This document shows positions 2,613-26,021 of a DNA stretch of 64,000 nt, one piece after another (within the stretch, counting starts at the first letter, position 1; each line of letters starts with the position of its first letter). A program made the translations under genes and the position numbers. Source of the stretch: an uncultured Candidatus Saccharibacteria bacterium (GTDB lineage Bacteria; Patescibacteriota; Saccharimonadia; Saccharimonadales; JACDBH01); NCBI GenBank assembly GCA_964490245.1, contig CAZBAF010000002.1, forward strand, positions 2,456 to 66,455, in the 5' to 3' direction. Below the pieces are notes generated by a model. The model searched no databases, was not told where the DNA came from, and saw nothing but the letters and a program-made list of their open reading frames with translations.

Positions 2613-3086
2613 ATGAAGCAACAGCGCTACACCATGCTTAACCGATCAGCGACCCTGATCCTGCGGGTGGCCCTTGTCGCCTTGTCGGCGATTGTACTGG
2701 CATTATACATATTCGCTTTGCCTGCCATGTGGAGAGGCGTCTCTGCCGAGTATCCGGACATAACCTTCGTCTTCTACGGCATTATTGCTGCACTTTATGC
2801 AGCTGCGCTGCCGTTTTTCTACGCGCTTTATCAGGCTATGATAGTCATCAATCTTATCGATACAAATAATGCTTTCTCAAAACGCTCTGTTAAGGCACTC
2901 AAAAACATTACGCTGAGCGGCGTCGTGATCAGCCTGATCTTTGCCGCTACTTTACCGCTGCTTTACGTGTGGGCTCAACACGATGATGCCCCGGGCCTTA
3001 TTGTTATAGGCATGCTGTTTACCGGAGCCTCTCTTACCGTATCGGCTTTTGCGGCTGTTTTGGAACGGCTGTTCCGGCTTCGTTAA
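2613..3086 (+). CDS. DUF2975-like integral membrane protein
   Basis: 157-aa ORF with four hydrophobic helices. The NAFSKRSVKALKNI segment between helices is as in DUF2975 proteins. Confidence 0.55.
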   Translation: MKQQRYTMLNRSATLILRVALVALSAIVLALYIFALPAMWRGVSAEYPDITFVFYGIIAALYAAALPFFYALYQAMIVINLIDTNNAFSKRSVKALKNITLSGVVISLIFAATLPLLYVWAQHDDAPGLIVIGMLFTGASLTVSAFAAVLERLFRLR

Positions 3087-3152
3087 TCTGAATTTTGTCT
3101 ATTTCACACACTTTTGCGGCATGTCTCTGCACGCACCGCGCTATTCTGATGT

Positions 3153-4814
3153 CTACGGTTTTGCCGCTCCCTGCAAACGCTCCAGTAATTGCACGGCCTC
3201 CGCTTCATCCATAATGCGCGTCTGCAGATCGCGGTCATAAACTGTCGGCGTCAATCTGGTCTGCACCAACATACTGTCAACAAAATAGTGGGTCAGAATA
3301 ATGCCCCGCTCTGTGCCCGGCCATTGCACCTGATCAAAATACATATTACCCAGACCGTAGTAAATCGGCTTGCCGTTATAAAGCTCGTACGTCTGCGGCT
3401 GGTGTGCCGAAGTGCCCACCACCATATCGGCACCCATGTCGATCACCTGCCGAAAAACCTCTGCCTGATTGGGGATAGGGGCATCGCACTGCGGATACTC
3501 GACGTAGCCGGCGGGATAGGCGTAACATTCATAAAACTGGATATCAACAATGACAAAACTATTGCCGGCTTTGGCCGCTTCTATGTCGGTTTTAACCTGT
3601 TCAAGATTAAAGCCATTGGCGCCCGCACTGTCGGGCCCAGCCAGCGCACCGCTGCCCGGACCATCGGCATAATTATAACCCAGCAACGTCAGGCTGCTGC
3701 CTTTTTGCTGCGCCACAAACGGCTTGGCGGCCTCAACGGCATTAAGACCGCCGCCAAAGGTATTCCAGCCTAAACTATGGTACAGCTCTATTGAAGCAGC
3801 GTTATATTCTGCCCCATAGTCATTGTTGTGATTGCCGGTCAGCTCAACCACGTCCACACCGCTGCTTTTAAGCACCTCAATCATCTCGGGCGGCGCACAA
3901 AAGCGGATTTCATGCAGGGCGCAGTTTGGCATAAACGATACCTCGTTCGAAACGTGTGTAATGTCAGCCGCCGCCAAAAAATCGCCAATCTTTTCACTAA
4001 AATAAGTCGCGTCAGGCACCGATCGGAGCCTAACCATCATGGCGCGCGTCAGCGCCGTAACACCTGTTTGCTTAAAGCTCAGCACCCTGTCTTTGCCGGG
4101 CAGATTATTGAGCTTAAGATCGGCAAAAACCCCGGCATCATCGCCCTCAAAAACCGCCTGCCTAAACAGCGCGCCGCTAGTAAACGAATCCAGATAATAA
4201 TCACCGTTCAGCTGCAATAACTTGAGCCTGCTGTTCAGCCGGTGCGCCGGTATAAGCGCCACCTGGTCAGCCCCAATCTCTTCCACCGGCCCTTCCAGCA
4301 CCCCTATGGTAGCAGCCTGTCTGTCCAGCGCCTCGGCAATACCGGTTTTTACTTTTTGGTCAACATCAACGGGCAGCAGCAGCTCTAGTTCTGACAGCTC
4401 GGCTTCCGTAACGCTCTGGCGGGAGGCGCTGGACGCCGTAACCGGCACATACGCCATCAACAGCGGCGCGTTATCGGCCGTCAGGCTTGTGCCAGCCCGT
4501 ACCTGCACATCACCCCCGATTGATTTTTGCTGCTCGGCAACCGCGCGCGTAATAATATCTTTCTCGCTTTCAGTCAGCGTATCTGCAAATTGCAGCCGGT
4601 TAGCCGCCTGGCCGCCTGCATTGTTACGCGCAAGAAGATAGACGGCCCCACCTGCCACAAGCACAATAAGCACAGCGGCCACAAGCATCCACAGCCTGCC
4701 GGGTCGCGGCCTTACACCATCTGACCGATACACACTCCCACGCATACTAATAGTGTACCATCCCGGCAGCAGTCCCCGGACATGCCGAACACACCTCAAA
4801 AAGTAACCGCCCAT
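3153..4814 (-). CDS. CapA family (metallophosphatase-like, poly-gamma-glutamate capsule synthesis type) membrane-anchored protein
   Basis: 553-aa ORF with an N-terminal TM helix (LWMLVAAVLIVLVAGGAVYLL). CapA-type blocks are HVSNEVSF, ELTGNHNNDYG and VVGTSAHQPQ. The start is uncertain; an alternative Met lies at 4745. Confidence 0.8.
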   Translation of the reverse strand: MGGYFLRCVRHVRGLLPGWYTISMRGSVYRSDGVRPRPGRLWMLVAAVLIVLVAGGAVYLLARNNAGGQAANRLQFADTLTESEKDIITRAVAEQQKSIGGDVQVRAGTSLTADNAPLLMAYVPVTASSASRQSVTEAELSELELLLPVDVDQKVKTGIAEALDRQAATIGVLEGPVEEIGADQVALIPAHRLNSRLKLLQLNGDYYLDSFTSGALFRQAVFEGDDAGVFADLKLNNLPGKDRVLSFKQTGVTALTRAMMVRLRSVPDATYFSEKIGDFLAAADITHVSNEVSFMPNCALHEIRFCAPPEMIEVLKSSGVDVVELTGNHNNDYGAEYNAASIELYHSLGWNTFGGGLNAVEAAKPFVAQQKGSSLTLLGYNYADGPGSGALAGPDSAGANGFNLEQVKTDIEAAKAGNSFVIVDIQFYECYAYPAGYVEYPQCDAPIPNQAEVFRQVIDMGADMVVGTSAHQPQTYELYNGKPIYYGLGNMYFDQVQWPGTERGIILTHYFVDSMLVQTRLTPTVYDRDLQTRIMDEAEAVQLLERLQGAAKP

Positions 4815-4852
4815 ATCCTTAACAGAGGTTTTTTGATAAAATAGTCCGGAAT

Positions 4853-4926
4853 GGCGCCGTGGCCGAGGGGTTAGGCAGAGCTCTGCAAAAGCTCGTACAG
4901 CGGTTCAAGTCCGCTCGGTGCCTCCA
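4853..4926 (+). tRNA. tRNA-Cys (GCA)
   Basis: Hand-folded cloverleaf. Acceptor GGCGCCG/CGGTGCC, anticodon stem GAGCT/AGCTC with loop CTGCAAA, T arm AGCGG-TTCAAGT-CCGCT, encoded CCA. Confidence 0.85.
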
Positions 4927-4968
4927 TATCACTCTATAAGAAGTGTCTCTTTGCAATCATTGTTTAAT

Positions 4969-5053
4969 GGGCGAGTGCTGGAATGGTAGACAGTCAGCAC
5001 TTAAAATGCTGTGGCCAAAAGCCGTGTGGGTTCAAGTCCCACCTCGCCCACCA
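4969..5053 (+). tRNA. tRNA-Leu (TAA)
   Basis: Acceptor GGGCGAG/CTCGCCC, anticodon stem CAGCA/TGCTG with loop CTTAAAA, long variable arm, T loop TTCAAGT, encoded CCA. Confidence 0.9.
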
Positions 5054-5084
5054 CGGTTATTTATGCTATAATGGCCCCTGTTTT

Positions 5085-5170
5085 GCGCGAGTGGCGGAAT
5101 GGTAGACGCGCTACTTTGAGGTGGTAGTGGGAGCAATCCTGTGGAGGTTCAAGTCCTCTCTCGCGCACCA
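5085..5170 (+). tRNA. tRNA-Leu (GAG)
   Basis: Acceptor GCGCGAG/CTCGCGC, anticodon stem CTACT/GGTAG with loop TTGAGGT, long variable arm, T arm GGAGG-TTCAAGT-CCTCT, encoded CCA. Confidence 0.85.
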
Positions 5171-5182
5171 TATTTGTACATA

Positions 5183-5208
5183 AGTCCAGTTTTTTTACTG
5201 GACTTTTT
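5183..5208 (+). terminator. rho-independent terminator after the tRNA cluster
   Basis: Stem AGTCCAGT / ACTGGACT with a T6 loop, followed by a T run. Confidence 0.6.
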
Positions 5209-5331
5209 GCTTGCCACTGAGCCTTGAACCTTAGCGCTAACCAACCAGAGAATGCGTATACAGATTCAGAGAAACACTTCAAGCAGAAATGCTTCTCTAG
5301 CGTGAACTCAGAGTGCCACTGGCACTCTTCG

Positions 5332-5393
5332 GGTTCAAGTCCTCTCATCCGCACCAGATAAAAACACCAAGCCGAAAGGTTTGGTGTTTTTAT
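5332..5393 (+). repeat. 62-bp copy of the 3' 25 nt of tRNA-Leu(CAG) plus its terminator hairpin (tRNA fragment)
   Basis: Identical by eye to 8030-8091 (GGTTCAAGTCCTCTCATCCGCACCAGATAAAAACACCAAGCCGAAAGGTTTGGTGTTTTTAT). No complementary 5' acceptor strand (GCGGATG) lies upstream, so it is not a functional tRNA. Confidence 0.85.
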
Positions 5394-5514
5394 ATTTAAT
5401 GGCAGCAACCCAGCCCTGTGGCCGTATTATTGTCCTGTTTTACTTAACGTAACCCGTCCACGTTCTAGTTCGTGCATCACGGCAGAACATATAAACCCCT
5501 AAAGGTCCTTTATT

Positions 5515-6153
5515 CTAATTGATGACGATGGTTTTTATGAATGCCGGGAGAGAACTTTCAATCTTTTGGACGGTCCATTCTTTATCGCCTTCACAAACGG
5601 TGTCGCCGCAAAGCGCCGGCAGGGATAGCTGATATACCTGGTTATTCTTTAACACCAGTACCCTGTACTGCCCGTCACCGCCGTCACCGGTCACATAGGT
5701 GGCGGTAGGATGGACGCCTTCAACTTTTGATTCGCTGTTTTTTACGAGGTTTGAGTCCCGTACGATACTTGGATTCCCGCTGTTGTCCATGTCAATTGTC
5801 TGCCATGCCTGGGCAGAGGTTGAATACCGCACCCAAACCGGCGCACCGTATCCCACAGGAATATTCTCGTCTGCAGCAAACTTCTCAACCTCAACCCCTT
5901 GCTGCCATCCCGCCGGAACCGCAAACTCAACACCTTCGGCGGATTTTTCTTCCCAGCCGGCAGGTATCTCCGGCTTGAATGCATTACCAGCCTGCTGTTT
6001 GTTTTGGCTAACGTTCGTCTGAGTTGCCTGGTTATTGCTGGAATCTGATTTCTGTCTGTCCCACACCAGCCAACCGACCGCAGCGACCAGCCCCAACAGC
6101 ACAATCACGACCAGCAGCTCTACGGTGCTGAAGCCTTTTTGATGTTTACGTAT
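5515..6153 (-). CDS. type IV pilin / pseudopilin-like protein (prepilin-type N-terminal signal)
   Basis: The track ORF 5515-6108 begins at an internal GTG. The same frame read upstream gives (ATA)RKHQKG-FSTVELLVVIVLLGLVAAVGWLVW, i.e. a basic leader, G|F, Glu at +5 and a hydrophobic helix. An in-frame TAA lies at 6163-6165 and no ATG/GTG/TTG lies between it and the motif. An AAGGTGGG SD sits at 6157-6164 just before ATA 6151-6153. The start is therefore uncertain. Confidence 0.6.
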   Translation of the reverse strand: MRKHQKGFSTVELLVVIVLLGLVAAVGWLVWDRQKSDSSNNQATQTNVSQNKQQAGNAFKPEIPAGWEEKSAEGVEFAVPAGWQQGVEVEKFAADENIPVGYGAPVWVRYSTSAQAWQTIDMDNSGNPSIVRDSNLVKNSESKVEGVHPTATYVTGDGGDGQYRVLVLKNNQVYQLSLPALCGDTVCEGDKEWTVQKIESSLPAFIKTIVIN

Positions 6154-7966: not shown

Positions 7967-8054
7967 GCGGATGTGGCGGAATTGGTAGACGCGCTAGCTT
8001 CAGGAGCTAGTGAGCATTACGCTCGTGGAGGTTCAAGTCCTCTCATCCGCACCA
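7967..8054 (+). tRNA. tRNA-Leu (CAG)
   Basis: Acceptor GCGGATG/CATCCGC, anticodon stem CTAGC/GCTAG with loop TTCAGGA, long variable arm, T loop TTCAAGT, encoded CCA. Confidence 0.9.
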
Positions 8055-21071: not shown

Positions 21072-21842
21072 TCAGCTTGACACATGAATACTTATCCGGG
21101 GCTCATGGGCACGAACATACAGAGGGAAAATGGATGACATATCTGATGACAGGTGGCGCAAAAAGCGCTCGGTCTGTTCGTACGGCGCAGCCATATCCAG
21201 CGTAGCAAATGGGATTTGCAAGCTCTGTGGACTAACCGGATAAGCCACCCCTTTGGATATACTCCCGAGAACTGCCGCGCTCTCTTTTGCCTGCTTTACT
21301 AAAATAGCGGTAGCCTCATCAGCAATATCAGGCACCAGCGTTAACTCCACTCCGCCATTCGCTACCTCGCCCAGAAAGCGGTAGCTTACCTGGCTAATTT
21401 TTACACGCAAATCATCCGGATTCGGATGGCCTGCCTCTAGTTGTATTTTATTAAGGGTTGATTTCAAAGGTGCGATATCGAAAGAACTATCATCTGTTTT
21501 GCGTTTATCACGATGCTTTTTAGGCACCTCCTTACCTTCACGCAACACGCGGGCTGCACTGCTGAATGGATTTTCAGAATGTGTGGCAGGAATAGTATAT
21601 CTCTCAAGCAAGGGTAGCCTGAGCCCGTCCGGGGTAAAAACACGGCAAAATTGCGGCGACGCACCTACGTGGTACTGGTTTTCTTCGCCTTCTATCTCTT
21701 TATCTGTAATGGTCACAAGGACAGAAACATTGTCATTCTGGAACACGACGCTTGCAATTTTGTTTGCCTTGTTCAAGAAATCGCTGGCGTTACTGATCGG
21801 TCTGACCGCCTCTAAATAGGTTAAGTCCTGCATACGTCTCAT
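21072..21842 (-). CDS. hypothetical protein
   Basis: 256-aa ORF with no signal peptide or TM and no family recognised. Single lines hand-count at lower G+C (about 45-47%). Confidence 0.5.
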   Translation of the reverse strand: MRRMQDLTYLEAVRPISNASDFLNKANKIASVVFQNDNVSVLVTITDKEIEGEENQYHVGASPQFCRVFTPDGLRLPLLERYTIPATHSENPFSSAARVLREGKEVPKKHRDKRKTDDSSFDIAPLKSTLNKIQLEAGHPNPDDLRVKISQVSYRFLGEVANGGVELTLVPDIADEATAILVKQAKESAAVLGSISKGVAYPVSPQSLQIPFATLDMAAPYEQTERFLRHLSSDMSSIFPLYVRAHEPRISIHVSS

Positions 21843-21895
21843 ATTGTGCGCCTATATAATTATCTAGACTACTGCGCAAATTATAGCATTAATGA

Positions 21896-22714
21896 CTAGC
21901 TTCTGTACGGTTTGTTTTCGTTATAGAATGCCTTCGGCGGATGCAGCGCAACCCTGGTCGGCACATCCGCTCCGCGCACCGCCACTTCTGACAAAGATGC
22001 AAAAGCATCAAACACGCTCATGTGCGGCCGCCGCCTGCGGTCTACCAAGCTTACATCGTAGCCCTCTTCTTTCCAAAAGCCCCACGTCGCCTCCATCTCC
22101 TCTGTCAAAATTTCTTCATGATCCCGCGCAAAGACTAAAGAGACATCACACTTACCAAACGGTTCTGGACTTTGGCCGACATTAAAGATCCCGTCGATCC
22201 ATTTACGTTCAGAGCGCTCCCGATCAAACAACAAATCCGAACCATTAGCCGCCTGAGCCTGCACCTGCGCCTCTTGAAAGCTATTATCCCTCACAAAATC
22301 ATGATAATCACGCTTGATCCGATTTAAAATCTGGAATAGTCTGCGATTAACAAGCGTACTGCCTTCATAGAGATCCGGATGCTTCTTTGCCAGCATTCTG
22401 CCTGCTTCGTTAGCGGTGACAAATGTCACAACGATACTGCCATATGCCTTTGCTTTCCCCCTGTTGTAGTTCTTAGCTCCGACTTCGTCTAAATAGTCAT
22501 GCCAGCTGTCCTTTAGCACAATGTTAGAGTCTGAGTTGCTTCTGTTGACTGCCCGACCCATGCTGAGCTGCGGGCGGATCCTCTGGGGCGTGAGCACACC
22601 GCGGGCCTCGCCGATCCTATGAAATGTATCAGAATCTGCCACATTATAGCTGCCAAAATTATGCGAGGATTCCGCCATTTCAATACCCCGTTCTACTTTA
22701 GTTGTAGTATACAA
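21896..22714 (-). CDS. hypothetical protein
   Basis: 272-aa ORF with a TTG start at 22714 preceded by GGGAG. An alternative ATG lies at 22678 (MAESSHNF...). No family recognised. Confidence 0.5.
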   Translation of the reverse strand: MYTTTKVERGIEMAESSHNFGSYNVADSDTFHRIGEARGVLTPQRIRPQLSMGRAVNRSNSDSNIVLKDSWHDYLDEVGAKNYNRGKAKAYGSIVVTFVTANEAGRMLAKKHPDLYEGSTLVNRRLFQILNRIKRDYHDFVRDNSFQEAQVQAQAANGSDLLFDRERSERKWIDGIFNVGQSPEPFGKCDVSLVFARDHEEILTEEMEATWGFWKEEGYDVSLVDRRRRPHMSVFDAFASLSEVAVRGADVPTRVALHPPKAFYNENKPYRS

Positions 22715-22782: not shown

Positions 22783-23232
22783 ATGCGACGTATGAAACGT
22801 TATGGGAAAATTATTGTCTTTGATACGCTCGCGGTCTTTTGTTTTATCGGCGTCATTCTGTTCGGCTGGCTGCCGGGACCGGGCGGCATACCGCTGTTCC
22901 TGCTTGGCTTAAGCCTTTTAGCGGTCAATCACGACTGGGCCGAGCGCTGGTTGAACACGGCAAAACATAAAGGGGTAAGTTTTCGTAAATGGCTGTTCCC
23001 CAATAAGGCCTGGGTCAAAAACACCTATGATGTTGCTGCCGTTGCACTGATCTGTGCGGCCGGTGCGGTACTGGTGACTTCTCAGAACCGGTTTATCGAA
23101 GGTGCGGCTGTTGTGATTATCACCTCAAGCTTGTTTGTGTTTTTAATTAACCGCGACCGTTTCGGCTCATTTACCAACCTGCTCAGAAAAATAAAACGAA
23201 AATACCGTAAGCATTTTATAGAATCTAATTGA
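22783..23232 (+). CDS. PGPGW-domain membrane protein
   Basis: 149 aa. WLPGPGGIPLFLLGLSLLAV matches the PGPGW transmembrane motif. Confidence 0.6.
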   Translation: MRRMKRYGKIIVFDTLAVFCFIGVILFGWLPGPGGIPLFLLGLSLLAVNHDWAERWLNTAKHKGVSFRKWLFPNKAWVKNTYDVAAVALICAAGAVLVTSQNRFIEGAAVVIITSSLFVFLINRDRFGSFTNLLRKIKRKYRKHFIESN

Positions 23233-23282
23233 TTTTATATAAATAAAGTACTATAATACAGCCAACTTAAGAGGTGGCTGTG

Positions 23283-23474
23283 ATGCTTCAATTTATTGTC
23301 CTGGGCTATGTTCCGGGTACTTCTGTTCAACTTTCCTTCACCGATATCCTGCTGCTTGCCGGCACAGGGCTTGCTGTTGCCTGTCTTGCCTTTTACTGGA
23401 TCAAATACCAGAACCGGCGCAGGCTCAGCCACGCCATCCCGCACTCTCTCGAGCTTAATCAACACGCTCAGTAA
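23283..23474 (+). CDS. small hydrophobic protein (hypothetical)
   Basis: The ATG at 23283 is preceded by a GAGGTGG SD (23271-23277). About 63 aa with two hydrophobic helices. Confidence 0.4.
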   Translation: MLQFIVLGYVPGTSVQLSFTDILLLAGTGLAVACLAFYWIKYQNRRRLSHAIPHSLELNQHAQ

Positions 23475-23715
23475 AGACGACCAGACGCTCGTCAAACGTA
23501 TTGCGGTCTTTATTAAACCTGCCGCTGCAGGTAATGAGATTGAGCCCCTGTTTTTCTGAATTGACGGGACTAAGAGCGGCGCCTAAGTCAACTTCGTCTG
23601 CAGGGTAGCGGCGTCTATCCACCACGCGGTAGGCTAGGACGCTGCCGTCGCCTTTTTCGAGCTTGATTTCGGCTCCGGCCGTTAGCTTATGCAGGCGCTC
23701 AGGTTCAGGCTGGCA
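23455..23715 (-). pseudogene. sortase C-terminal fragment (no start codon, N-terminal two-thirds missing)
   Basis: An open frame not in the track reads ...AGAEIKLEKGDGSVLAYRVVDRRRYPADEVDLGAALSPVNSEKQGLNLITCSGRFNKDRNTFDERLVVFTERVD*. It carries the sortase catalytic L-I-T-C motif and the downstream conserved Arg (ERLVVF). The frame is closed by TAA at 23716-23718 and overlaps the 3' end of the 258-aa surface protein gene. Confidence 0.6.
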
Positions 23716-24458
23716 TTATTGCCAACCGTGGTGCCGCCGGCGGATGTGCCGACAAGCCTATTGCTGGCACTAAAGCTGCCGTCTGTAAAGCTCAGGTTTC
23801 CGGCAAAGTCATCAAAATTTACATGGTAAGGGGTGATATCCCCGGGCCCTTTAAACGCGAGCGTCCCCGAGCCAGTGGGCGCAGAGTTGAAGTATATCAG
23901 GTTATTTTGGGCACTCTGCAGCGTAAGTGTGTATGTTGACACATTGACTGTACCGGAGCCGTCCGGAGGGCCGATAATCAGCGTACTTTCATCAGACGGA
24001 GCCGAGGAGCTGGAAACAATACTGACATTCGCGCCCGCTATCAGATCAAGCGTTACCTGTGCCACGCAACCGCCGGTCGCATCATAGGTAAGACTGCCGG
24101 TCAGGGTGATAGAGTTGCCGGCCAGTGTGTATGCCAGTGACGTGCAGTCATTGTTGGTGCCGGTAAACTGAATGCCCGCAAAGCTCGTACCTTCCGGTAA
24201 ATCGTTAAAAGGATGCCTGTTAGCCGACGCAACCGTCATCGGAAACACCAGGCTATCCCCGGCCTCTGGTACCGTGCTGTTGTCACAGCCGGTCCAGTTA
24301 TCCGAGGTACTAAAGTTATCGTCCTCACCAGCACCCGTCCAGGTACAGGTATCGGCTGCGGCACCGGCCAGTCCCGGCGTCCATACCGCCAGCGCCGAAA
24401 CCGCCAATACAAAGGCCATTACAAATAGATTTAGTTTTTTAATACTGTTTGTTTTCAT
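23682..24458 (-). CDS. secreted surface protein with autotransporter-associated beta-strand (PATR-like) repeats, apparently C-terminally truncated
   Basis: 258 aa with a strong SD (AAGGAGGGG). Signal peptide MKTNSIKKLNLFVMAFVLAVSALA, then CTWTGAGEDDNFSTSDNWTGC and repetitive beta-helix-like sequence. It ends abruptly (…NLSACIS*) with no wall-sorting or anchor signal. Confidence 0.6.
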   Translation of the reverse strand: MKTNSIKKLNLFVMAFVLAVSALAVWTPGLAGAAADTCTWTGAGEDDNFSTSDNWTGCDNSTVPEAGDSLVFPMTVASANRHPFNDLPEGTSFAGIQFTGTNNDCTSLAYTLAGNSITLTGSLTYDATGGCVAQVTLDLIAGANVSIVSSSSAPSDESTLIIGPPDGSGTVNVSTYTLTLQSAQNNLIYFNSAPTGSGTLAFKGPGDITPYHVNFDDFAGNLSFTDGSFSASNRLVGTSAGGTTVGNNASLNLSACIS

Positions 24459-24584
24459 TTTAACCCCTCCTTATTCATAAGGGTTGCACGTTTTTTTGAT
24501 TAAGGTGCAGTTGTATAAACTTAAGCATTACTATAGGCACGATATGGACAGACTGCAAATAATCGTGTCTGACTTTTCTACAGT

Positions 24585-26021
24585 TTACTGATCGGCCACG
24601 GGCAGAATACTCTCGCCGTACAGCTGCAGCTCCTGCAGCAAAAACTGCTGGTGGCTGGTCAGCCCTTCACGCGCCGCCAGTTCGCTCAGACGCACAAAGT
24701 ACCGTTCGGCCCGGCTTGGCCTGCCGCCCAGCAGCCGGGCGCGGCGAAAAGCCTCCCAGGCCGTCTGCTCGTCTGTTGTCAACAGCTTGGGGAAGTTGCG
24801 CGCTTTATACAGCGGAAATAATTTGGTCAGCCGGGGATCGGAAAAATCAGGCTCCAGCGAGGAGATTTCGTCGTCATCGGCCGCACGCACTACCGACATG
24901 ACCGTTTTGTCTTTGTCACCTATAAATCCGTCATACAGCTGCGTATCCACGTCCTGTTCGTCAGCTAAAAAGCTGGTCTGACGCTGTTTATCCAACAGGC
25001 CAAGCGCCGCACACAGCTGTTTATACAGGTCCGGATACTCAGCCAGCGCCTTGCGATGGGCGGTGATGGTCTCCATATCAAGCTGCAGCCGCTCCTGACT
25101 GGCATTGTCAAGCACACCCAACGGCGCCACGGCCGGGCAACGGTTAAACTGCAGTGTCTTAACCGGAAAACGCTGCGTCTCGTCCTCGACACGCTGGTGC
25201 CAGGCCGCCGCCAGTTCGGCCGGTGACATGCCGGCAATATCGGCCGGATTACGCCGCAGATCATAGACCAGCACTCCCTGCTTGCCGGGGTGTTCGCCTA
25301 ACACTGTAACCAGCGTGGTCTTTTGATAGATACTTGGATACTTACCGCTGGTATAAACAAATATGTCGTTCTGGGACGCCAGCTCCTTAACCTTGTTCTT
25401 GTTACGCAGTTGCAGTAAAAAATCAAAGAGCTTCGGCTGCTTGTTGCGTATCAGCCGGGCCACGGCAATGGTTGCATTGACGTCGCTGAGAGCATCGTGA
25501 GCATTGTTGTGTACAAGCTTATTCACAGACGTCAGCAGCTCCAGGCGGTTACTGGGGCGCCCGTCAGCCGCGAACGGCCACTCAATACCGTCCGGCCGCA
25601 GCGCCCGTGTCATACGAATCATATCAAGCAAATCCCACCGGCTGCGTCCGTCCCGCCAGCTCCATTCATAGGCGTCATAAAAGTTGCGGTACAGCGCAAA
25701 GCGCATAAACTCATCATCAAACCGCACATTGTTATAGCCAATAAAAACTGTGTCCGGCAGGGCAATTTGGTCGGCAAAGTAACGTAAAAACTCTGCCTCG
25801 CTCAGACCGTCAGCGCGCGTCGCCTGAGGCGTGATACCGGTAACCAGAATGGCGTCAGGTTCGGGCAGGATATCATCTGTCAGCCGGATCAGAATATTGT
25901 CCGGCTCGCTGACGGGTTTGAGGTTTATATCGGTGCGCTGACCGGCAAACTGCATAATCCGGCCGTCGCGCGGACTGACGCTGCTTGTCTCAAGGTCATA
26001 AAAATAAAAACTGACAGCCAT
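24585..26021 (-). CDS. sbcB: exodeoxyribonuclease I (SbcB-like DEDDh exonuclease)
   Basis: 478 aa. FYDLETSSVSPRDGRIMQFAGQRTD (ExoI motif), H..AHDALSDV (ExoIII motif) and ExoI C-terminal domains. Confidence 0.85.
   Translation of the reverse strand: MAVSFYFYDLETSSVSPRDGRIMQFAGQRTDINLKPVSEPDNILIRLTDDILPEPDAILVTGITPQATRADGLSEAEFLRYFADQIALPDTVFIGYNNVRFDDEFMRFALYRNFYDAYEWSWRDGRSRWDLLDMIRMTRALRPDGIEWPFAADGRPSNRLELLTSVNKLVHNNAHDALSDVNATIAVARLIRNKQPKLFDFLLQLRNKNKVKELASQNDIFVYTSGKYPSIYQKTTLVTVLGEHPGKQGVLVYDLRRNPADIAGMSPAELAAAWHQRVEDETQRFPVKTLQFNRCPAVAPLGVLDNASQERLQLDMETITAHRKALAEYPDLYKQLCAALGLLDKQRQTSFLADEQDVDTQLYDGFIGDKDKTVMSVVRAADDDEISSLEPDFSDPRLTKLFPLYKARNFPKLLTTDEQTAWEAFRRARLLGGRPSRAERYFVRLSELAAREGLTSHQQFLLQELQLYGESILPVADQ

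Follow-up and report, generated by a model that had tools for sequence, protein, structure and literature searches.

We conclude that the locus bounded in the window (the whole stretch of DNA analysed, 64,000 nucleotides) by an exonuclease I-like gene on one side and the gene of a small membrane protein on the other is very probably the scar of one recent internal deletion, ~1.8–1.9 kb in size, in a two-gene Saccharibacteria cassette. In relatives, the intact cassette encodes a surface protein of ~550 aa, predicted to be Sec-exported and all-beta, with a sorting signal at its C-terminus and, directly downstream on the same strand, a membrane-anchored class-F-like sortase. The deletion would span the cassette from substrate codon ~231 to sortase codon ~280 and leave the two reading frames out of register; the substrate gene would now stop after five foreign codons, giving a 258-aa protein, and the sortase would be cut down to its last 80 codons. 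Export of the 258-aa product would still be possible, while its membrane retention and its linkage to the wall would be lost. We infer that the cell continues to produce and secrete it, and that the surface protein has lost its wall anchoring through this event. The features of the locus, in window coordinates, are as follows.

24585..26021, − strand: exonuclease I-like gene, upstream boundary of the cassette site and synteny anchor
24559→24530, − strand: sigma-70-like site upstream of the 258-aa ORF (consensus match only)
24466..24472, − strand: AAGGAGG resembling a Shine-Dalgarno sequence, separated by 7 nt from the downstream ATG of the 258-aa ORF (consensus match only)
24458→23682, − strand: 258-aa ORF, truncated surface protein, ending in NLSACIS and a stop codon
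23700..24458, − strand: native part of the surface-protein gene, 253 codons, corresponding to residues 1–230 in orthologues 556–562 aa long
23697..23702, − strand: probable deletion junction, between the last surface-protein codon (CTG, 23702–23700) and the first sortase codon (CGC, 23697–23695)
23682..23699, − strand: out-of-frame tail of the 258-aa ORF, SACIS and TAA, in sortase-derived DNA (codon view)
23715→23458, stop 23455–23457, − strand: start-less sortase frame, reading CQPEPERLHKLTAGAEIKLEKGDGSVLAYRVVDRRRYPADEVDLGAALSPVNSEKQGLNLITCSGRFNKDRNTFDERLVVFTERVD
23455..23697, − strand: native part of the sortase C-terminal remnant, 80 codons and the stop, from the Pfam/NCBIfam matches and the alignment to locus L002 (see below)
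23274..23474, + strand: small membrane-protein gene, 66 aa (MAVMLQFIVLGYVPGTSVQLSF...), downstream boundary of the site, without a Pfam family
22783–23232: PGPGW-domain gene, next after the small membrane-protein gene

The 258-aa protein starts with a signal-peptide-like sequence (MKTNSIKKLNLFVMAFVLAVSALAVWTPGLAGA/AAD), in which inspection reveals a basic n-region followed by a hydrophobic core and an AGA/AA site, and in which a helix is predicted by AlphaFold2 over residues 5–24. Its C-terminal end, ...NNASLNLSACIS and a stop, carries no sorting motif, membrane helix or basic tail, as judged by inspection and a pattern scan. This bears out an earlier sequence-only reading of this DNA, which had the ORF ending in NLSACIS without a sorting signal or membrane anchor. 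The same reading described the protein as PATR-like, a label for which we find no support: neither the 258-aa protein nor its full-length orthologues matched any Pfam family, PATR (PF12951) included, even at E ≤ 10. The AlphaFold2 model of the 258-aa protein is all-beta, at low confidence (pLDDT 59.7, from a 3-sequence alignment), and a Foldseek search of this low-confidence model against the PDB gave nothing significant (best E 2.3), with beta-helix proteins making up most of the matches.

The second frame on the − strand, placed by the sequence-only reading at 23715→23458 with a stop at 23455–23457, has exactly these coordinates, and the 34-nt overlap with the end of the 258-aa ORF that had been reported for it is also correct. 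Its translation, open on the 5' side, reads ...RLHKLTAGAEIKLEKGDGSVLAYRVVDRRRYPADEVDLGAALSPVNSEKQGLNLITCSGRFNKDRNTFDERLVVFTERVD. The frame opens right after a stop (23716–23718) and does not begin with a start codon; the sole in-frame start is a GTG at 23625 (56 aa), ahead of which there is no ribosome-binding site, and the remnant was recorded by no gene caller. The match of this frame to the Pfam Sortase family (PF04203; E 5.9e-9, 36.2 bits, gathering score 26.6) is restricted to profile positions 55–125 of 125, and that to the NCBIfam class F sortase model (NF033748, 43.1 bits) covers positions 79–153 of 155. A phmmer search with the fragment gave 1332 matches at E ≤ 0.001 in 1.84 billion representative proteins; among the matches listed and longer than 200 aa, residues 7–85 of the fragment align with the very C-terminal end, the full proteins being 210–536 aa long. 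A word-indexed protein search with the 86-aa fragment as query returned no match; the matches came from the full HMMER scan.

Aligned with 18 intact relatives, the remnant is unchanged at all invariant positions of the region it covers, among them Cys63 and Arg77. The catalytic Cys motif reads GLNLITC, with the conserved Arg downstream. The fragment was thus rightly recognised from the sequence alone as part of a sortase with its catalytic Cys and Arg, as both the Pfam match and the invariance of the two residues confirm, and the NCBIfam model agrees. By tblastn it is 56% identical to residues 280–359 of the L002 sortase. A His-Cys-Arg triad is common to all sortases (PMC8225981). The break lies downstream of the conserved His of this family (DGHVSGP, alignment column 372), which the remnant does not have, and the membrane helix, which in intact relatives is found ~130–250 residues from the N-terminus, is missing as well. 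Deprived of a start codon, a membrane anchor and the catalytic His, the remnant cannot, judging from its sequence, be an active enzyme.

The site was compared with 160 related loci, retrieved from genome and metagenome collections by means of the exonuclease gene; where titles were available, nearly all of these loci belonged to Saccharibacteria or Saccharimonadales, and the best relatives showed 71% and 67% amino acid identity in the exonuclease. This exonuclease-anchored scan of genomes and metagenomes turned up no strain nearly identical to that of the window, whether with an intact locus or with the same one. The usual order in relatives is the exonuclease gene, then a convergent small membrane-protein gene ~40–80 nt further on, then the PGPGW gene, and the 66-aa membrane protein has tblastn matches in 89 of the 160 loci. 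A − strand ORF of 86 aa at 23235–23495 was discarded as spurious, the conserved gene at this place being the + strand 66-aa ORF. At its 3' end the 66-aa gene overlaps the 3' end of the sortase remnant by 20 nt, in convergent orientation, and the same convergent overlap, of a homologue of this gene with an intact sortase, is seen in the two loci that carry an intact two-gene cassette at the window's site. These two loci, L002 and L083, are the only ones to do so, the cassette being wholly absent from the same site in all 158 others. In the coordinates of the loci, the cassettes lie at the following positions.

L002, 2779–5622: 562-aa surface protein (2779–4467) and 369-aa sortase (4513–5622)
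L083, 7635–10335: 556-aa surface protein and 325-aa sortase

The surface protein of L002 ends in ...VIDGPNTGFKRLVMANPAVVLGATVAAAGAVYYLARRYAFAKKRS (GPNTGF followed by a helix and KKRS), and that of L083 in ...VANTGFMLTMSNPFVIAAATAMLAGGAYVLSRRYAHAKVSK (VANTGF followed by a helix and a basic tail). In tblastn searches against the window, the L002 surface protein aligned over residues 2–230 with 36% identity, the alignment ending at 23700, and the L002 sortase aligned over residues 280–359 in another frame, starting at 23697. The two blocks of homology abut within 3 nt, which fits a single clean deletion of ~1.8–1.9 kb. The bases that encode SACIS and the stop in the surface-protein frame give E-R-L-H-K-L-T when translated in the sortase frame, where they align with RLHTL in the L002 enzyme. 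Compared with the intact loci, the DNA missing from the window is equivalent to L002 3469–5349 (1881 bp) or L083 8325–10095 (1771 bp). This stretch comprises the C-terminal ~330 residues of the substrate together with its sorting signal, the spacer, and ~250–280 codons from the start of the sortase gene; with these, the enzyme lost its variable N-terminal region, the membrane helix and the conserved His motif.

Alignment to L002 and L083 thus defines the junction at 23700/23697; these coordinates are the limits of homology to the two loci and, with the closest relative at 71% amino acid identity in the exonuclease, the exact breakpoints are approximate. It had been proposed from the sequence alone that a deletion removed the 3' part of a substrate gene together with the 5' two-thirds of its sortase. 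The intact pairs in L002 and L083 and the abutting homology blocks agree with the first part of this proposal and with the loss of the 5' part of the sortase gene, the extent of which had been set too low: the codons lost number 279 of 369 by L002 and 246 of 325 by L083, or about three quarters. No direct or inverted repeat and no microhomology is present at the junction in the window sequence.

A junction of this kind could also have been created by the assembler, had two places 1.8 kb apart been misjoined while the real genome carries an intact cassette. The sequence-only reading had offered such an artefact as its alternative, and it gains some ground from the fact that the window evidently comes from a metagenome-assembled genome. 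However, a separately assembled Logan contig of SRR7082966, 100% identical to the window over 23216–24473 (1258 bp), spans the junction and reproduces it exactly, which makes an artefact unlikely, even though this contig is the sole independent check and may derive from the same sequencing run. Further to that, a false join within one strain would require a k-mer common to both sites, and the junction has neither a direct nor an inverted repeat on which a de Bruijn graph could have collapsed. We consider the probability of a misassembly to be very small.

The deletion, taken as real, looks recent. Hidden Markov models were trained on half of 233 intact family members over the C-terminal 80-residue region. 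They gave the remnant 112–113 bits, which ranks it at the 34th–50th percentile of those intact members that were kept out of training, a result slightly favoured by the fact that the family set was partly gathered by similarity to the fragment itself. Over the 80 sortase residues, identity to L083 is 41.8% for the remnant and 39.2% for the intact L002 enzyme; over the surface-protein part, it is 35.2% for the window and 34.7% for L002. Over the native 253 residues of the surface protein, seven intact homologues share 19 invariant columns, and all 19 are kept in the window. Neither remnant shows signs of neutral decay in the form of internal stops, frameshifts or lost conserved residues. Since both remnants score like intact members of the family, the deletion appears to be young relative to the divergence of the lineages of the window, L002 and L083. 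The undecayed state would also fit continued selection on the remaining parts; in the case of the start-less sortase piece, such selection is implausible.

If selection did act here, the short forms might be functional in their own right, that is, a secreted 258-aa protein maintained by selection, possibly together with a small sortase-derived peptide, and the locus would represent a new architecture and not decay. The strong Shine-Dalgarno sequence, the promoter-like site and the putative signal peptide kept by the 258-aa ORF would be expected under this scenario, as would the complete set of invariant columns in its sequence and the undecayed sortase remnant. However, a young deletion accounts equally well for the missing decay, and the short forms are confined to the window: they were found in no relative, either in 5.8 billion proteins or in the 160 syntenic loci, where the same short ORFs, if under evident purifying selection, would have spoken against a deletion. 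Every homologue of the surface protein that was seen in full is 378–562 aa long and carries a sorting signal. As to the sortase piece, it has no start supported by its context, no ribosome-binding site at GTG 23625, no His and no membrane anchor, and its absence from the gene callers' output points the same way. A functional role of the short forms is therefore very improbable in our view, and we retain the recent deletion as the explanation.

The overlap of the two frames raised the further question of a programmed −1 ribosomal frameshift, by which the surface protein and the sortase would be produced as a fusion. The sortase frame does stay open over the final 34 nt of the 258-aa ORF, relative to which it lies in the −1 frame. 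This candidate was rejected, as no slippery heptamer of the form X XXY YYZ exists in 23715–23685 and the product would be meaningless, a fusion with only half a sortase barrel and no His. The deletion junction fully explains the overlap, and in intact relatives the two are separate genes, leaving a programmed frameshift with a next to negligible probability.

In a neighbour-joining tree of the exonuclease protein, a single-gene tree in which the deep nodes are poorly resolved, the lineages of the window, L002 and L083 lie dispersed in a single clade, and the other members of these lineages lack the cassette. The simplest reading of this pattern is a repeated complete loss of the cassette from an ancestral site, with the window as an incomplete loss observed at an early stage. 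In CPR bacteria, sortases are known to be common but unevenly distributed (PMC6744442).

A separate observation concerns the stretch beyond the PGPGW gene. Between this gene and uvrA, at window positions 21072–22714 on the − strand, two adjacent ORFs of 256 and 272 aa are found in DNA of somewhat lower GC content (about 44–52%). Neither ORF matches a Pfam family, and relatives lack homologues of them at the syntenic site, distant ones occurring only in L097 and L043; the stretch may be a second variable island. The tRNA genes of the window are ordinary:

4853–5170, + strand: tRNA cluster Cys-GCA, Leu-TAA, Leu-GAG
7967–8054, + strand: separate tRNA-Leu-CAG

Family members outside the window's site show the same arrangement of substrate and enzyme. 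Five further sortases of the family have a homologue of the surface protein upstream, 378–552 aa by the best judged starts and 33–39% identical to the L002 protein; one of these genes was called as 589 aa, with a start apparently placed too early. The five loci, in their own coordinates, are given below.

L162, 2910–5636: substrate and class-F-like sortase
L164, 2860–5577: substrate and class-F-like sortase
L166, 2328–5059: substrate and class-F-like sortase
L167, 2196–5068: substrate and class-F-like sortase
L168, 2606–4804: substrate and class-F-like sortase

Together with L002 and L083, this places a homologous surface protein directly upstream of the sortase, on the same strand, in all seven intact loci, which represent several genomic contexts. 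All seven homologues carry a sorting signal composed of [P/A][D/N]TGF, a hydrophobic helix and an R/K-rich tail, the motif in the five further substrates, whose tails are Arg-rich, being SPDTGF (three), APDTGF (one) and APNTGF (one). A pattern scan of all collected loci and the window found this signal only in these substrates, apart from one spurious antisense ORF, and no other sortases or sorting-signal proteins are present within the 64-kb window. The position of the substrate directly upstream in seven of seven loci and the confinement of this type of signal to these proteins mark the pair as a unit in which a substrate goes together with a sortase dedicated to it. Going by the adjacency and the signal, and by analogy with the sortase–substrate pairs known from Gram-positive bacteria, the sortase presumably cleaves the signal of its neighbour and links the protein to peptidoglycan.

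Class F is the best-scoring sortase class for the remnant and for its intact orthologues, though the remnant and even the intact L002 sortase (127.2 bits against NF033748) stay below the curated cut-off of 166 bits, and some family members bear the NCBI title 'class F sortase [Candidatus Saccharibacteria bacterium]'. The family sortases begin with a poorly conserved Pro/Ala/Lys/Arg-rich region of ~130–250 residues before the membrane helix (e.g. L002 4513–5622); in well-studied sortases the N-terminus is short, far shorter than in this family. The [P/A][D/N]TGF sorting motif, which differs from the canonical LPXTG/LAXTG, appears to be undescribed in the literature that we searched. A conserved Saccharibacteria cassette with this motif is a more interesting lead than the deletion scar itself.

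One feature of the substrate family is noted here in its own right. Residues 38 and 58 of the 258-aa protein (window 24285–24347) are a pair of Cys in the motif (C)TWTG...DNF/W.T..NW..(C). Both are present in the window, L162, L164, L166, L167, L168, P0002 and P0003, and both are absent from L002 and L083; this co-occurrence across homologues suggests that the two may form a disulfide pair.

What we describe is a well-documented case of gene loss in a reduced, host-dependent bacterium, in which one deletion very probably hit an enzyme together with its presumed substrate. For annotation purposes, the 258-aa ORF should be marked as a truncated gene, and a sortase pseudogene should be entered at 23455–23697. 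The patchy distribution of the cassette suggests that surface display is frequently remodelled in Saccharibacteria epibionts.

Saccharibacteria live attached to other bacteria. It is conceivable, and we put this forward only tentatively, that the cassette is an uncharacterised surface module, possibly a host-attachment factor, that is repeatedly lost from genomic sites or moved between them as the partner changes, and that the window captures a co-deletion by which a toxic build-up of the substrate was avoided. Depletion of the sortase in Actinomyces oris reportedly leads to a toxic accumulation of unprocessed substrate in the membrane. Removal of the membrane-retention signal and the sortase in the same event would keep unprocessed substrate from accumulating there.

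With regard to known systems, the remnant resembles the class F sortases (NF033748; Cutibacterium/Propionibacterium acnes SrtF type) in its TLxTC-type Cys motif (NLITC) and the Arg downstream. It is unlike them in that this family has a long and variable N-terminal region, ~130–250 aa before the membrane helix, and in that the copy in the window is a C-terminal remnant only. The presumed substrates here end in [P/A][D/N]TGF, whereas the class F enzyme of P. acnes has been tied to LPXTG (PMC8225981). The intact cassette is similar to the dedicated sortase–substrate pairs of Gram-positive bacteria, with which it shares the adjacency on one strand and a substrate composed of a putative signal peptide, an xPxTG-like motif, a helix and a basic tail. 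It differs from those pairs in its host, a member of the Patescibacteria (Saccharibacteria), and in its substrate, an uncharacterised all-beta protein without a Pfam domain, and in the window the pair is broken. The scar itself is like the deletion-derived pseudogenes of reduced bacterial genomes, with which it has in common a partial syntenic homology, a missing start codon and an out-of-frame junction. Nothing essential sets it apart from these, the notable point being that both partners were disabled by a single event, and the feature is an ordinary recent deletion pseudogene of a sortase–substrate pair and not a new kind of system.
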